This document shows, one piece after another, positions 4,361 through 50,063 of a stretch of DNA of 64,000 bases. The DNA is from Escherichia phage p000v. The notes under the pieces are model-generated. The model did not search any database. It saw only the letters and a program-made list of their open reading frames with translations, and was not told where the DNA came from. Where the stretch lies: the sequence record NC_055781.1. One strand, given 5' to 3'. The stretch's first letter is position 1, and the number at the start of each line of letters is the position of its first letter. The translations under genes and the position numbers were made by a program.

Positions 4361-5029
4361 ATGATCGATAAAGACTATATTGAAGAGTTACGTGCTCTTT
4401 CTGATAAAAAGGAAGCCAAAGCTAAACTGTTTGAATATGCGGAACAATTTGGCATTAGTGTTAAGAAAACAAAATCATTCGATAATATTGTTATTGATAT
4501 CGAAGAAGCTCTTAACGCACTGGCTGATGAACCGTTACCTGAAACTGATGGATTATCTATCACCGATTTAATTACTGCCGCAGATGATGTGGACGGTGTT
4601 AATTTCACCAACGAAGAAGTTAAAGAAGAAGCTATTCTGTTGTTTGATTCTCCAACAGACCAAGTTGAAGTATTAGAAGTTGTCGAACAAGAAAAAGAAT
4701 TCGACCATGATAAATTCGAAGAAGCAATTACTCAGGTTGTTGAATCTGAAAAAGAGCCTGAGTCAGAGGTAAATAAAGAAGTAAAATTTGTTCTGCCTGA
4801 AAATTTTAGTCCTACACTCATTAAATTAGGCAAAGGCCCAGGGTATGTTACTGTTCCTTGGTGGATTTATCAATGGATAGCCGAAACCCCAGATTGGAAA
4901 TCTCGCCCAACTAGTTTTGTGCACGCTTCTGCCCACCAAACATTATTTAGCTTAATTTATTATATTAATCGCGATGGATCAGTTCTAATTCGTGAAACTC
5001 GTAATTCTTCTTTTGTAACATTAAAATAA
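4361..5029 (+). CDS. inh: Inh-like protein (inhibitor of prohead protease), acidic
   Basis: 222 aa; acidic central region; located between uvsW and hoc as T4 inh. Assignment by position and composition. Confidence 0.6.
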   Translation: MIDKDYIEELRALSDKKEAKAKLFEYAEQFGISVKKTKSFDNIVIDIEEALNALADEPLPETDGLSITDLITAADDVDGVNFTNEEVKEEAILLFDSPTDQVEVLEVVEQEKEFDHDKFEEAITQVVESEKEPESEVNKEVKFVLPENFSPTLIKLGKGPGYVTVPWWIYQWIAETPDWKSRPTSFVHASAHQTLFSLIYYINRDGSVLIRETRNSSFVTLK

Positions 5030-5038
5030 GGATAACTT

Positions 5039-6169
5039 ATGGCTTTTACAGTTGATATAACTCCTAAAACACCTACTGGAGTTATAGATGAGACTAAGCA
5101 GTTTACTGCTACTCCCAGTGGTGAAACTGGAGGTGGAACTATTACCTATGCATGGAGTGTAGACGATGCTCCTCAAGTAGGATCGGCAGAAACTTTTGAT
5201 TACGTGTTAAAAGGACCCGCTGGAACAAAAACAATTAAAGTTGTTGCAACAAATACTATTCCTGATACTGATGCCGAAACGGCAGAAATTACTACGACTA
5301 TCACGGTTAAAAATAAAACTCAGTCAACTACTTTGGCAGTAACTCCCGATAGTCCTTCAGCTGGAGTAATTGGAACCCCAGTTCAATTTACTGCTGCCTT
5401 AGCTTCTCAACCGGCTGGAGCGTCTGCTACGTATCAGTGGTATGTAGATGATTCACAGGTTGGTGGAGAAACTAACTCTACATTTAGCTATACTCCAACT
5501 ACAAGTGGAGTAAAAAGAATTAAATGTGTAGCTCAAGTAACTGCGACAGATTATGATGCAAAGGAAGTTACTTCGAATGAAGTATCATTAACGGTTAATA
5601 AGAAGACAATGAATCCACAGGTTACATTGACTCCTCCTTCTATTAACGTTCAACAAGATGCTTCGGCTACATTTACTGCTAATGTGACTGATGCTCCGGA
5701 AGAAGCGCAAATTGCGTATTCATGGAAGAAAGATTCTTCTCCTGTAGAAGGGTCAACTAATGTATATACCGTTGATACTTCATCTGTTGGAAGTCAAACT
5801 ATTGAAGTGACTGCCATCGTTACTGCAGATGACTATGATAGCAAAACTATTACAGCAGAAGGTCAAGTTCAAGTGACTGATAAAGTTGCTCCGGAACCAG
5901 AAGGTGAATTACCTTATGTTCATCCTCTTCCACATCGTACTTCAGCTTACATCTGGTGCGGTTGGTGGGTTATGGATGAAATCCAAAAAATGACTGAAGA
6001 AGGTAAAGATTGGAAAACTGAAGATCCAGATAGTAAATACTACCTGCATCGTTACACTCTTCAGAAGATGATGAAAGACTATCCGGAAGTTGATGTTCAA
6101 GAATCACGTAATGGATACATCATCCATAAAACTGCTTTGGAAACTGGTATCATCTATACATATCCATAA
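5039..6169 (+). CDS. hoc: Hoc, highly immunogenic outer capsid protein (Ig-like repeats)
   Basis: 376 aa (T4 Hoc length); three or four repeated Thr/Val-rich Ig-like segments and a conserved C-terminal capsid-binding region (WCGWWVMDEIQKM...). Confidence 0.85.
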   Translation: MAFTVDITPKTPTGVIDETKQFTATPSGETGGGTITYAWSVDDAPQVGSAETFDYVLKGPAGTKTIKVVATNTIPDTDAETAEITTTITVKNKTQSTTLAVTPDSPSAGVIGTPVQFTAALASQPAGASATYQWYVDDSQVGGETNSTFSYTPTTSGVKRIKCVAQVTATDYDAKEVTSNEVSLTVNKKTMNPQVTLTPPSINVQQDASATFTANVTDAPEEAQIAYSWKKDSSPVEGSTNVYTVDTSSVGSQTIEVTAIVTADDYDSKTITAEGQVQVTDKVAPEPEGELPYVHPLPHRTSAYIWCGWWVMDEIQKMTEEGKDWKTEDPDSKYYLHRYTLQKMMKDYPEVDVQESRNGYIIHKTALETGIIYTYP

Positions 6170-46429: not shown

Positions 46430-46933
46430 ATGAGTCTTTACACTGAACTGAATAAAAAATCTGAAGAATCTGCTGAAACTATTTTTAAAAACGTGCAAAA
46501 GCGTATTTTAGAAAAGATGTATAACGCTGCATCTAAAGGTGAAAAATCTTGCCAGTTTCCGATGAGGTGTTCTTCTGATTTATGCGCAAATACTATTGAA
46601 TGGTTGGAAAGTGAAGGTCTTACAGTAGAGAAAAACCCGGCGACTTCTATTGACAGTGAATCATATATTAGTATTTCTTGGGATAAATCAAGGGTAGAAG
46701 AGAAAGATGGTGATTGGGTTGTAGATGTTAAAACTTCTGATGGTGGACGTTCTGTTGAAGTTTCAGCTGTAGTTAAAGGTACCCACGAACAAAGGACTTG
46801 GGGCTGGGGTGGTGAAGAAAAAGAAATTGTTCTTAGTGTGATTGCCAGGTCAACTAGTAATAAAATTGCACAAAGCATCATTGACGCTGCAATTGCTGAA
46901 GCAGAAAAAATTTGCAAAATTAAAAATAAATGA
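46430..46933 (+). CDS. Hypothetical protein
   Basis: Start at M15 of the track ORF (SD GAGGA); 167 aa. Confidence 0.55.
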   Translation: MSLYTELNKKSEESAETIFKNVQKRILEKMYNAASKGEKSCQFPMRCSSDLCANTIEWLESEGLTVEKNPATSIDSESYISISWDKSRVEEKDGDWVVDVKTSDGGRSVEVSAVVKGTHEQRTWGWGGEEKEIVLSVIARSTSNKIAQSIIDAAIAEAEKICKIKNK

Positions 46934-46992
46934 TGTACAATCACCAAGGATGGTGATACTATAGACTTATCAACTACAGAGGAGTAAACAAA

Positions 46993-47157
46993 ATGACTAC
47001 TTTAATTATTTGGTTCGATGAAAATGAAGAAACATACTGTGTGAATATTGGTGAAAGCCCAATGCCTGAATTTGAATCCTCAGATAAAAACTCTGTTGTA
47101 TCTTGGGCTGAAGGTTATAAAGCAGCTAAAGGTGACGTTGAAATAATTTACATCTAA
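46993..47157 (+). CDS. Small hypothetical protein (54 aa), not in ORF track
   Basis: ATG 46993 preceded by the duplicated 45-nt leader with SD GAGGAG; MTTLIIWFDENEETYCVNIG...; stop TAA 47155-47157. Confidence 0.5.
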   Translation: MTTLIIWFDENEETYCVNIGESPMPEFESSDKNSVVSWAEGYKAAKGDVEIIYI

Positions 47158-47203
47158 GTAAGTTTATGTTATAGTAGTTCTATCAAAACAAGAGGAAAAC
47201 AAA
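47147..47203 (+). promoter_or_regulatory. Decayed early promoter cassette (TTTACA-17-TGtTATAGT) + leader
   Basis: TTTACA at 47147-47152, 17-nt spacer, TATAGT preceded by TG; leader CTATCAAAACAAGAGGAAAACAAA-ATG; upstream IR arm missing compared with the full cassettes. Confidence 0.5.
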
Positions 47204-47431
47204 ATGGCTAAAGTTAGTATTGATGTCGTTGATTATGAATACACAGAAGAAGTTATTCGCAACCGTCACCCTGAAGTTCGTATCGATTCAGTACAAGATT
47301 CCAAGTTCTGGACAACTGAGCTTAATCTGAGTGGTCCTTATGAAGCTGTTAAGAAGTTCATGGTTGAAGAATACTGCGAAGGCATGCACCCCGAAGACGC
47401 CAAGTTTTATGTCAATTTGATTAAAAAATAA
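47204..47431 (+). CDS. Hypothetical protein
   Basis: 75 aa ORF with cassette leader and SD GAGGA. Confidence 0.55.
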   Translation: MAKVSIDVVDYEYTEEVIRNRHPEVRIDSVQDSKFWTTELNLSGPYEAVKKFMVEEYCEGMHPEDAKFYVNLIKK

Positions 47432-47432
47432 T

Positions 47433-47501
47433 TTACAAACTCTTGAGAGCAGAGTATAATGCTCTCGTTGGATAATAAACCACCAATTGAAAGGTAATAA
47501 T
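47433..47501 (+). promoter_or_regulatory. Sigma70-type promoter (TTTACA-17-TATAAT) with inverted repeat flanking the -10
   Basis: TTTACA, 17-nt spacer, TATAAT; GAGAGCA...TGCTCTC inverted repeat around the -10; SD GAAAGG before ATG 47502. Confidence 0.55.
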
Positions 47502-48095
47502 ATGAACACACTGAAGAAACTTGTTGAATTCATCCGCACTAAACTGGGTACTGCTATGGCTAAAAATCTGACTGTAGAAGAACAGTATAACGCAGCTGCA
47601 GATAAGTTGATTACCCAAATCAAAGAACTAAAAACGGCTTCTGTTAAATCTATTAACGAAGAAAAACGTATTCGCGAACTTGTTAATGAAAAGAACAAGC
47701 AAGCCGCTTCTAAGGAACGTGAAATTCGTAAGCTCCTGGCTGAAGGACAAGATGTTACCATGCATGCTAAGCTTGGTCTTCTGTATCGTCGAACTGCCGA
47801 ACAACTTAATACAAAAGCTGACGGTTATGCCGCTATGCGAATTGAAATTGCTCGTAAGGTGGTTGAACTTGATGATGCTCGTCAGAACCTGGCAATCAAA
47901 CTCGAATACATTCGTGAAACTCGAGCAGCCAATGCCCTTGGTATCTCTACGGCTGATGATGTGATTGAAATTGCTGCACTGACTAAGGTTGATATCGAAG
48001 ACACTCTGACTCGTGTCGAAACATTCAATGGCACTCCAGCCGGTGTCGAAACCACTTCTGCTGATGTACAAGAATATATTAACTCTTTGAAATAA
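47502..48095 (+). CDS. PspA/IM30-like coiled-coil protein
   Basis: Start at M6 of the track ORF; 197 aa, almost entirely helical with heptad-like charge pattern ([33 protein letters not shown]...[14 protein letters not shown]) resembling phage-shock protein A. Confidence 0.45.
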
Positions 48096-48103
48096 AATAA
48101 TAC

Positions 48104-48126
48104 GGAGGACTCCGGTCCTCCTTTTG
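48104..48126 (+). terminator. Rho-independent terminator
   Basis: GGAGGAC-TCCG-GTCCTCC hairpin followed by TTTTGG. Confidence 0.6.
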
Positions 48127-48144
48127 GATAATAAAGGAGTTAAC

Positions 48145-48747
48145 ATGCGAAACCAAAATAATGATATTGACTCAATGTTCGAAGAGTTCCGAGATAAGGT
48201 AAATCCACCTACGTCTTTAGTTGATTCATTACGATATGTTGCAACTGGGCGTAAATGGTACTGGTCGTCTTCTTATGAGACCACCGAGAAAACAGCTAGC
48301 CATAGCAGAAAATCTTTATTGGCCCCGGGTATTATGATTCATGATATCGGAGCTATTGCTAAACTAGTTGCAGACCATGATATTAGATTCACTGATTTCG
48401 TTGCTCCTACGTGGTCTGTTTGTTGTTTAAACACTGAATGGGAATATATCAGCGAACGCTCTGAAGATTATTATGGTTTTAGAGATAAGCTTCTGAGGTC
48501 TAATATGTTTTATATCGATACAGAAGTTCTAGTCGATAATAAAAAATATTACTTTACGTTAATCATCGATTCTGAAACTATGTATGAAGGCAAGCCTTTG
48601 CTTAAAAGAGTTGATGCTTTAAGTGCTATTGATGCGCTTTATGAAACTATGGTTGTTAGTCCTAATTTCACTAACAATTTAATCCTTGAGCAATTTATTA
48701 TGGAATGTAGAGAATATGTCAAAGCCAACCCTATACATGCCAAGTAA
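48145..48747 (+). CDS. Hypothetical protein with C-terminal QFIMECR motif
   Basis: Start at M8 of the track ORF (SD AAAGGAG); 200 aa; C-terminus ...LILEQFIMECREYVKANPIHAK shares a motif with 48716, 51356 and 52349. Confidence 0.55.
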   Translation: MRNQNNDIDSMFEEFRDKVNPPTSLVDSLRYVATGRKWYWSSSYETTEKTASHSRKSLLAPGIMIHDIGAIAKLVADHDIRFTDFVAPTWSVCCLNTEWEYISERSEDYYGFRDKLLRSNMFYIDTEVLVDNKKYYFTLIIDSETMYEGKPLLKRVDALSAIDALYETMVVSPNFTNNLILEQFIMECREYVKANPIHAK

Positions 48748-49108
48748 GCCCTGGGCGTATGAATACAAGCGTAAATTAATCCCAAATGAAGTACTATTTG
48801 GCCCTATTTTAGCTTTAGCATTTTTAATCTTTATGATTATAGGAGCTGTTTTAGATTCTAGTGAAGTTATATCGTCTGATGCAGCATTTTCATTAATGTT
48901 CGTCGCACCACTTATTATACCGTTTTTATTAATGCCTATTAACTGGATGGGATATTGGTACCAAGGACGTCATCACAGAGCCCGATTAAGAGAATGGAAA
49001 GTTCAGTGCGCAAAAGCCCAAGCTCAGTATGATGAAGCTGTTAAAAAGTATGAATATGAAGAAGCTATGGAATTCGTTAAGGAAATAAGATGCAAAAGCC
49101 TTAACTGA
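48716..49108 (+). CDS. Membrane protein (two TM helices) with C-terminal EFVKEIRCK tail
   Basis: Start uncertain (ATG 48716 or 48737; track ORF begins with TTG at 48686); TM segments ILALAFLIFMIIGAVL and FSLMFVAPLIIPFLLMPI; helical C-terminal tail. Confidence 0.5.
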   Translation: MSKPTLYMPSKPWAYEYKRKLIPNEVLFGPILALAFLIFMIIGAVLDSSEVISSDAAFSLMFVAPLIIPFLLMPINWMGYWYQGRHHRARLREWKVQCAKAQAQYDEAVKKYEYEEAMEFVKEIRCKSLN

Positions 49109-49206
49109 ATTTATGCTGTTTACGCTTCTCAAATGATTAGTTATAATGAACTCCTAGCTAAACGTGAAAATGAAACAATCGAAAACTTTATTAAGGAATG
49201 TAGAAA

Positions 49207-49512
49207 ATGAGTAAGATTATTGAAATTAAAGTACCAGAGTTTAATGATGCCAAATCCGCTTCAGATGCAATTTATAAACTTCTGAATCAAGCTGAACGTA
49301 TCGAAGAAGAAGCAACAAAGATCGCAGACCAATACGCTGTATCGTTTTCTGTAGGTGATTATGGTAGCGGTCGTACTTATTATCCTAAGGGTGAAATCGT
49401 ATCCCAGTGGATGAAAAATGAAATTGAAAATAATGGTGGCGACGTTAAGCGTGAAGGTAATGGTTACGTTATTACTGAAGGTGCTTGGGTTTCGTCTTCT
49501 GCGTTGTGCTAA
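49207..49512 (+). CDS. Small protein, member A of tandem triplicated family (C-terminal GAWVSSSALC)
   Basis: 101 aa; shares helical N-terminus and C-terminal G-W-V-S/A-S-S-x-x-C motif with 49522 and 49804. Confidence 0.6.
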   Translation: MSKIIEIKVPEFNDAKSASDAIYKLLNQAERIEEEATKIADQYAVSFSVGDYGSGRTYYPKGEIVSQWMKNEIENNGGDVKREGNGYVITEGAWVSSSALC

Positions 49513-49521
49513 GGAATCATT

Positions 49522-49794
49522 ATGTCTAAAGAACAAACCGAACTGGCTGAAGCCGTAGCAAAAATCTATGCAGCTATTGAGGCTGCCAAAGAAATTGCTA
49601 ATAAACAAAACACAACATTCGACTTGTATCCAGCTTATGGCATGGGTGGAACCTATCATTCACCAGGACATCTTAAAGCCGATCTTGAACGTTGTACAAA
49701 AAACGGCTATGCTGAATGGGCTGACGTTTACCAATACGACTACAACTTGAGCCTTGAAGATGGCGGTTGGGTTGCATCTTCTCACACTTGTTAA
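49522..49794 (+). CDS. Small protein, member B of tandem triplicated family (C-terminal GGWVASSHTC)
   Basis: 90 aa; paralogue of 49207 and 49804. Confidence 0.6.
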   Translation: MSKEQTELAEAVAKIYAAIEAAKEIANKQNTTFDLYPAYGMGGTYHSPGHLKADLERCTKNGYAEWADVYQYDYNLSLEDGGWVASSHTC

Positions 49795-49803
49795 GGAAAT
49801 CAT

Positions 49804-50001
49804 ATGTCTCGTGAATTAGATTGTGCTGTACGTACAGCAGTAGCTGCCCTAGAAAACCTGTTCCAGATTGCAACCGAAGAGCGTGAAGAAGTTACATTGT
49901 GGATTGAAGATAACGCAGGTCTGAATCTCCAGGACGCAATCTCGTTATCAAATAATAGTATTACTGTTCAAGGCTGGGTATCATCTAGTTATTCTTGCTA
50001 A
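49804..50001 (+). CDS. Small protein, member C of tandem triplicated family (C-terminal QGWVSSSYSC)
   Basis: 65 aa; paralogue of 49207 and 49522. Confidence 0.6.
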   Translation: MSRELDCAVRTAVAALENLFQIATEEREEVTLWIEDNAGLNLQDAISLSNNSITVQGWVSSSYSC

Positions 50002-50005
50002 AACA

Positions 50006-50063
50006 GTTTACAACAAGATAGGGCTATGTTATAGTAGTCCTATCAAATTAAATGGAGTCTACA
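50006..50063 (+). promoter_or_regulatory. Early promoter + stem-loop cassette (PeSL-like)
   Basis: GTTTAC (50006-50011), TGTTATAGT inside the inverted repeat ATAGGGCTA...TAGTCCTAT, leader CTATCAAATTAAA, SD GGAG. Confidence 0.6.

Follow-up and report, generated by a model that had tools for sequence, protein, structure and literature searches.

Gene e.6 of Escherichia phage p000v (NC_055781.1) appears on balance to encode a membrane-stabilising protein from a highly divergent phage lineage of the PspA/IM30 (Vipp1) family, which forms the bacterial branch of the ESCRT-III superfamily; we put the probability of this reading at roughly 0.55. Its parts differ in strength. Family-level homology to PspA/IM30 over residues 1-146 is very probable from the sequence comparisons, and the functional part, stabilisation of the inner membrane and the proton-motive force during infection, is drawn by analogy and falls a little short of an even chance. 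The gene lies within the 64,000-nucleotide stretch of phage DNA that was analysed (the window, from whose first nucleotide all positions are counted), and its coordinates and those of the associated features are given in Table 1. The initial annotation had described an almost wholly helical 197-residue product resembling PspA/IM30; the open reading frame and two AlphaFold2 models bear out the description, and the resemblance is supported at the level of remote homology by a deep family profile, hhalign, Pfam matches of individual family members, and Foldseek.

Across positions 46900-48800 the DNA is 98-99% identical to that of Shigella phage Shf125875 and Escherichia phage vB_EcoM_MM02, the latter classified in its record as a Mosigvirus of the Tevenvirinae. 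The 197-residue protein is 88% identical to T4 e.6 (NP_049742, UniProt P39224, T4 positions 69312-69905) and also 88% identical to T2 e.6, and by sequence the gene is the orthologue of T4 e.6; the earlier remark that no PspA homologue was known in T4 was therefore mistaken. T4 e.6 is annotated only as a 'conserved hypothetical protein', and phrog_1203, which the 197-residue protein matches with an E-value of 4.6e-87, is listed as 'unknown function'. A tblastn search found e.6 in about 1,100 of 50,697 phage records, with hosts that include Escherichia, Klebsiella, Shigella, Aeromonas, Enterobacter, and others; where the matches carry a gene name it is 'e.6', and most records have 'hypothetical protein'. 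An exhaustive HMMER search, in which close relatives supplied the profile and 1.84 billion representatives were scanned, returned only 45 clusters, nearly all of 195-209 residues. One distant family member, used as a tblastn query, led to Ackermannviridae (including a Kuttervirus record) and to Straboviridae, and the Kuttervirus locus is also matched directly by the e.6 query (tblastn E-value 3.7e-7). Kept in about 1,100 phage records, and with its T4 protein detected by proteomics, e.6 is a real gene.

The genes around e.6 – an FRD3-like gene, e.5, and e.4 – have no assigned function. The flanking e.5 and e.4 are 47% and 54% identical to their T4 counterparts, against the 88% of e.6, and they adjoin e.6 in the T4/Mosigvirus lineage only. 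The neighbours of e.6 homologues vary among Pseudotevenvirus, Ishigurovirus, Serratia phage 92A1, and Kuttervirus: in Pseudotevenvirus the homologue separates the two subunit genes of the anaerobic ribonucleotide reductase, in Aeromonas phage 65 it follows gene 31, in Serratia phage 92A1 it lies downstream of tRNA genes, and in Kuttervirus it is close to DNA ligase, the gene downstream of it there having no homology to e.5. Neither a conserved partner gene nor a recurring membrane protein was found beside the homologues across the phage lineages compared, and the same neighbourhoods contain no PspB, PspC, PspF, or other known PspA partner. The gene is a stand-alone cassette.

Some features of these neighbouring genes can be recorded here. 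The gene directly upstream of e.6 (47204-47431, + strand) encodes a 75-residue FRD3-family protein (Pfam PF05798, E-value 1.3e-38); T4 has e.7 at this place, an example of gene shuffling in the hyperplastic region. In the e.4 homologue (phrog_2604; 48716-49108, + strand) two transmembrane segments are predicted, with a charged helix after them at the C-terminus; the gene shares 32 nt with the end of e.5, an arrangement suggestive of translational coupling. In Salmonella phage GEC_vB_GOT the gene downstream of the Kuttervirus e.6 homologue (4497-5219) overlaps the homologue by 113 nt; its true start is probably later, and when read from an internal methionine it begins with a predicted transmembrane helix.

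Table 1. Positions in the window of e.6, its predicted protein segments, and the signals on either side of it.
Feature	Coordinates	Strand	Basis
Putative sigma-70/T4-early-type promoter, TTTACA-17 nt-TATAAT	47432..47460	+	Consensus scan, 11/12 positions matched
Inverted repeat GAGAGCA-N8-TGCTCTC, overlapping the -10 hexamer	47445..47466	+	Arms at 47445-47451 and 47460-47466
Ribosome-binding site AAAGG	47490..47494	+	Read off the sequence; 7 nt 5' of the e.6 ATG
e.6 coding sequence, 197 aa, probable divergent PspA/IM30-family protein, phrog_1203	47502..48095	+	ORF (ATG at 47502, stop codon ending at 48095), tblastn, HMM, hhalign, Foldseek
Residues 2-22, predicted N-terminal amphipathic helix alpha0, net charge +4	47505..47567	+	AlphaFold2, hydrophobic moment
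Residues 25-145, predicted long antiparallel helical hairpin, corresponding to alpha1 plus alpha2/3 of PspA/Vipp1	47574..47936	+	AlphaFold2, HMM, hhalign
Residues 146-197, family-specific C-terminal region with short predicted helices	47937..48092	+	40-member alignment, AlphaFold2
Intrinsic-terminator-like hairpin GGAGGAC-TCCG-GTCCTCC followed by TTTT	48104..48125	+	Fold; annotation in MM02

A predicted early-type promoter and a predicted terminator frame e.6 as a stand-alone unit. The promoter is the top-scoring site of the 5.5-kb region scanned; promoter-like sites are not in excess in that region (11 observed, 17 expected from shuffled sequence), so the consensus match taken by itself says little for a promoter. 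The call is backed by T4, which keeps a promoter (GTTTACA-17-TATTAT) at the equivalent position and whose e.6 RNA is classed as early. The inverted repeat that overlaps the -10 hexamer has a predicted RNA folding energy of -13 kcal/mol (z = -3.0 relative to shuffled sequences) and has no counterpart in the T4 e.6 upstream region; as it lies upstream of the expected transcript start, it would be present only in RNA that reads through from the FRD3-like gene. The hairpin downstream of the gene (-14.4 kcal/mol, z = -3.1 relative to shuffled sequences) is annotated as a terminator in the MM02 record, and T4 carries a different GC hairpin at this position. The promoter, the inverted repeat around its -10, and the terminator listed in the initial annotation are thus all found in the DNA.

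In T4, e.6 has been classed as 'early-RNA_middle-Protein' (Wolfram-Schauerte et al. 2022; PMC9697503 supplement), which means that its protein was detected. The genome-wide CRISPRi-ART study of 2025 still enters T4 e.6 under 'unknown function, phrog_1203' with essentiality 'UNKNOWN', and records the knock-down as 'Not Fit' with a score of 0.30, that is, with no laboratory fitness defect (PMC11879866 supplement). These data also bear on the names 'host specificity protein' and 'tail completion protein', which some GenBank and UniRef records carry and which would make e.6 a virion or host-range component. We regard such a role as highly improbable, since the names are unsupported automatic annotations in a family most of whose records read 'hypothetical protein', the early promoter, early region, and early T4 RNA are unlike those of late structural genes, and no structural-protein family in Pfam or PHROG was matched.

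The relationship to PspA/IM30 emerges only with diverse profiles. The single 197-residue sequence gave no PspA/PF04012 match in Pfam even at an E-value of up to 10, no match at all among PDB sequences, and nothing above threshold in NCBIfam, and among the Pfam families listed for 30 close relatives PF04012 was absent, with miscellaneous coiled-coil noise only. A narrow profile of T4-like close relatives (A1) reached Vipp1 with an E-value of about 1 only, though the alignment was already co-linear, and gave a probability of 6.8% in hhalign against PspA/Vipp1. The signal appeared only once distant members from the exhaustive HMMER search had been added to the profile; the resulting profile, A2, is built on an alignment in which the family is represented by 40 diverse sequences with identities as low as 17%. 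When A2 was used to search 177,635 PDB sequences, the seven best matches were all Vipp1 or PspA (E-values 4.5e-5 to 9.4e-4), with a co-linear alignment of family positions 1-146 to Vipp1 positions 1-147, and the best unrelated coiled coil was a 70-residue fragment match. Comparison of A2 with an alignment of enterobacterial PspA plus Synechocystis Vipp1 residues 1-152 in hhalign gave a probability of 91.6% and an E-value of 8.1e-7 over 170 columns, beginning residue 1 to residue 1; the PspA side of this comparison, built from the E. coli PspA sequence, is of low diversity (Neff 1.6) because its relatives are all at least 86% identical. The initial annotation had held that profile searches without a PspA/IM30 match would speak against its reading; such was the outcome with the shallow profiles, and the deep profiles recovered PspA/IM30 specifically.

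Two family members from Ackermannviridae exceed the Pfam gathering score of PF04012 (PspA_IM30; 33.9 bits) as single sequences, P0183 with 39.0 bits and P0177 with 35.1 bits. The next best members, P0182 (22.3 bits) and P0180 (22.1 bits), fall below it, and the matches of all four cover approximately positions 2-143 of the 220 in the Pfam profile. These four proteins were recruited by a HMMER profile made from T4-like sequences alone, at E-values of 1e-17 to 1e-20, and the chain of homology is therefore not circular.

A hairpin of this kind could also be an unrelated coiled coil (BAR-like, a scaffold, or spanin- or SMC-like) with a convergent likeness to PspA/Vipp1 that arises from composition and heptads, and the single sequence does weakly match several coiled-coil families, among them an Rz-like spanin PHROG with an E-value of 0.042. 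We consider this improbable. The PDB sequences searched with A2 include thousands of coiled coils, yet all seven top matches are Vipp1/PspA and are full length, other coiled coils scoring lower and as fragments only. The score also depends on the order of residues: A2 gives 28.8 bits with the real Vipp1 (residues 1-152), -2.2 bits with the reversed sequence, at most 10.4 bits with any of 200 shuffles, and at most 6.0 bits with any of 200 shuffles that preserve the heptads. The two members above the PF04012 threshold and the hhalign probability likewise argue against convergence.

The same profile gives E. coli PspA only 6.2 bits, barely above the 5.8 bits of its best heptad shuffle, so the e.6 family is nearer to Vipp1-type sequences than to the PspA of the host. 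The signal for PspA/IM30 comes mainly from Vipp1-type sequences.

The two AlphaFold2 models of the protein agree on helices at residues 2-22, 25-80, 86-145, 166-174/175, and 186-196, and the second has an additional short helix at 151-160. Mean pLDDT is 76-79 for the whole protein and 84-97 for the hairpin, and it is low (41-52) for alpha0. The latter helix aligns to alpha0 of Vipp1 and PspA in both the HMM and the hhalign alignments, and its hydrophobic moment of 0.43 compares with 0.42 for E. coli PspA and 0.57 for Vipp1. In a Foldseek (3Di+AA) search of the PDB, the check that the initial annotation had called for against PspA, Vipp1, and ESCRT-III, the eight best matches are all Vipp1, the best with an E-value of 3.1e-4, and PspA and archaeal CdvB2 rank lower in the list; against viral models, members of the e.6 family come first. 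The predicted hairpin superposes on Nostoc Vipp1 (6zvs_A) at 2.9 Å over 123 columns. The modelled architecture, alpha0 followed by an alpha1-alpha2/3 hairpin, matches that of the PspA/IM30 family, and the hairpin core is the fold common to ESCRT-III proteins (Snf7, CHMP, CdvB). Comparison with the Snf7 family of eukaryotic and archaeal ESCRT-III proteins (Snf7, IST1, CHMP1B, CdvB2) gave no sequence-level signal, and neither a MIM-type tail nor a Vps4 partner, as in ESCRT-III systems, is evident for e.6. The combination that marks a BAR domain, a three-helix crescent dimer with sequence-family support, was not found.

The C-terminal third is peculiar to the family. It contains a conserved LGI..DV motif (G147) and a ..Y..SLK tail (Y192), and both G147 and Y192 are near-invariant across the 40 members; its short helices are predicted with low AlphaFold2 confidence. 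Residues 139-197 alone (59 residues) matched nothing among PDB sequences, the PF04012 matches end at about position 143 of 220, short of this region, and although hhalign extends the alignment to PspA residue 171, column confidence there is weak. In PspA, Vipp1, and ESCRT-III proteins the C-terminal helices alpha4 and alpha5 provide polymer contacts. Pfam and PDB sequence searches detected no counterpart of these helices in the C-terminal third of e.6, and with so divergent a C-terminus e.6 may oligomerise in another way than PspA or have other partners.

Among known proteins, Vipp1/IM30 (Synechocystis sll0617 and Nostoc; PDB 7o3w, 6zvr, 8qfv) is the best match of e.6 by both profile and Foldseek. 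The two have the same order of helices with near-equal boundaries (alpha0 at about 1-22, alpha1 at about 25-80, and alpha2/3 at about 85-145, those of e.6 being predicted) and both have an amphipathic N-terminal helix, again predicted in e.6. They differ in that identity is only 14-18%, in length (197 residues in e.6, 260-280 in Vipp1), and in that e.6 has no detectable alpha4, alpha5, alpha6, or C-terminal extension of the Vipp1 kind and ends instead in a family-specific tail of 50 residues. Unlike Vipp1, e.6 is encoded by a phage and expressed early in lytic infection.

E. coli PspA (4whe) shares its Pfam family with e.6 by transitive evidence, and its alpha0 has a comparable hydrophobic moment. 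The two sequences are about 11% identical in the hhalign alignment, net charge is -6 in PspA as against +1 in e.6 (0 as against +4 in alpha0), and e.6, unlike E. coli pspA, has no pspBCDE or pspF context. These differences are relevant to the idea that e.6 mimics PspA and acts as a regulator or decoy of its host partners (PspF, PspB/C, or parts of defence systems that draw on PspA, for example type II CBASS, whose Cap2/Cap3 system conjugates the cyclase to PspA), so blunting or rewiring the host response. The 1-144 fragment of E. coli PspA carries the PspF-regulatory function. The homology of e.6, over residues 1-146, corresponds to the PspA hairpin fragment crystallised as 1-144 (4whe), and the conserved C-terminal third with G147 and Y192 could offer a new surface for interaction. 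A tie between PspA and defence that would suit a decoy has been described by Kruger et al. (2024), who reported that PspA retains a CBASS cyclase until infection occurs; this link was demonstrated in Bacillus, outside the enterobacteria (PMC11153139), and for that reason it counts for less here. The very low similarity to host PspA (about 11% identity, and 6.2 bits for PspA against A2) is poorly suited to fitting the surfaces of host partners and disfavours a decoy; moreover, T4-type phages shut off host transcription, so there would be little to gain from silencing PspF, and the family, with hosts from Aeromonas to Klebsiella, gives no sign of tracking host PspA sequences. We therefore judge a decoy function to be unlikely, albeit less so than either a convergent coiled coil or a virion protein.

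A phage-encoded PspA is not new as such. Gendre et al. (2022) identified Gp_125 of Kuttervirus SeF3a, a phrog_1203 protein, as a PspA homologue by HHpred and proposed that it counters abortive infection by averting loss of the proton-motive force; T4 e.6 is not mentioned alongside Gp_125 in the available portion of that paper (PMC9409062). No link between T4 e.6 and PspA was found in the literature searched, where 'e.6' as a search term returned mostly noise. It seems, then, that the phage kind of PspA has been known since the 2022 Kuttervirus report and that the connection to T4 e.6 is unrecorded. SeF3a Gp_125 and the other Ackermannviridae phrog_1203 proteins have their PHROG, length, and architecture in common with e.6, and the Ackermannviridae proteins are about 22% identical to the 197-residue protein; Pfam recognises members of this group directly (P0183 and P0177) but not the T4-type members scanned. 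Acinetobacter phage vB_AbaM_ME3 also encodes a PspA/IM30 protein (A0A172Q0S7), a weak Foldseek match to e.6 (E-value 0.06, probability 0.96) that, unlike e.6, is annotated directly as PspA/IM30 and is 229 residues long. Phage PspA proteins of this canonical length are probably a separate and less diverged acquisition.

On the reading of e.6 as a divergent PspA/IM30 protein, a role can be proposed by analogy with the cellular family, in which alpha0 enters anionic membrane under stress and polymerised hairpins make up a coat that protects or remodels it. Soon after infection, the cationic amphipathic helix at the N-terminus would attach e.6 to the inner membrane, and the hairpin would then mediate self-assembly into an oligomer that covers the membrane and limits leakage of protons and ions. 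With host transcription shut off by T4-type phages, the sigma54-dependent psp operon of the host cannot respond, and a phage-borne e.6, made constitutively under an early promoter, could supply the missing function. The benefit is expected to be conditional, with the proton-motive force maintained against DNA injection, superinfection, or membrane-attacking effectors of abortive infection, and its maintenance may also prevent premature triggering of the holin. A role exercised only under certain conditions would agree with the absence of a laboratory phenotype; the candidate conditions are infection at high multiplicity or superinfection, the presence of defence systems that target the membrane, and a need to stabilise lysis timing.

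More broadly, and as a distinctly more tentative proposal, T4-type and Vi1-type (Ackermannviridae) phages may carry an ESCRT-III-superfamily membrane-repair protein that is made within minutes of infection and replaces the Psp response of the host, which the phages themselves disable. Such a protein would maintain the energised state of the inner membrane once DNA has been injected and when superinfection occurs, determine how robust lysis timing and lysis inhibition are, and weaken those abortive-infection systems whose killing works by membrane depolarisation; if this is true, it would offer a molecular approach to the old question of how T4-infected cells reseal their membrane and keep it polarised until the holin is triggered. 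In T4, the reference lytic phage, about half of the genes are still without an assigned function, e.6 being one of them. Kinship with PspA/IM30 suggests a concrete candidate role for a gene that about 1,100 sequenced phages of Enterobacteria and Aeromonas carry, and e.6 would add to the bacterial ESCRT-III-like family a separate branch of short, phage-specific proteins whose C-terminal module is new. Should e.6 protect membrane energisation, this would bear on lysis timing, on resistance to membrane-targeting defence systems, and on the choice of therapeutic phages, a point raised for Kuttervirus SeF3a by Gendre et al. (PMC9409062).

Several other features were seen in the region around e.6. 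The 12-mer TTGGATAATAAA occurs exactly at 47468-47479 and 48124-48135 (+ strand), after both of the hairpins that flank e.6, each copy at most 2 nt from the stem or T-run and just 5' of the ribosome-binding site of the next gene. The 64 kb contain three matches with at most one mismatch, a number reached in 8 of 100 shuffles, and the 12-mer is absent from the T4 e.6 region; it may provide both sites with a common context for processing or for translation initiation. Further T4-early-type promoter matches (TTTACA or TTTACG, 17 nt, TATAGT or TATAAT) precede small genes on the + strand at 47147-47175, 49119-49147, and 50007-50035, which suggests, as far as sequence can, that the region has many short, independently promoted early transcription units. 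At 49207-50001 (+ strand) there are three tandem small open reading frames of 101, 90, and 65 residues with a common C-terminal motif, G-x-W-V-[SA]-S-S-x-x-C (GAWVSSSALC, GGWVASSHTC, and QGWVSSSYSC). Two PHROGs without an assigned function are matched, phrog_899 (in its C-terminal part) by the first two frames and phrog_4882 by the third, and the three have the look of paralogues in tandem that share a conserved cysteine at the end.
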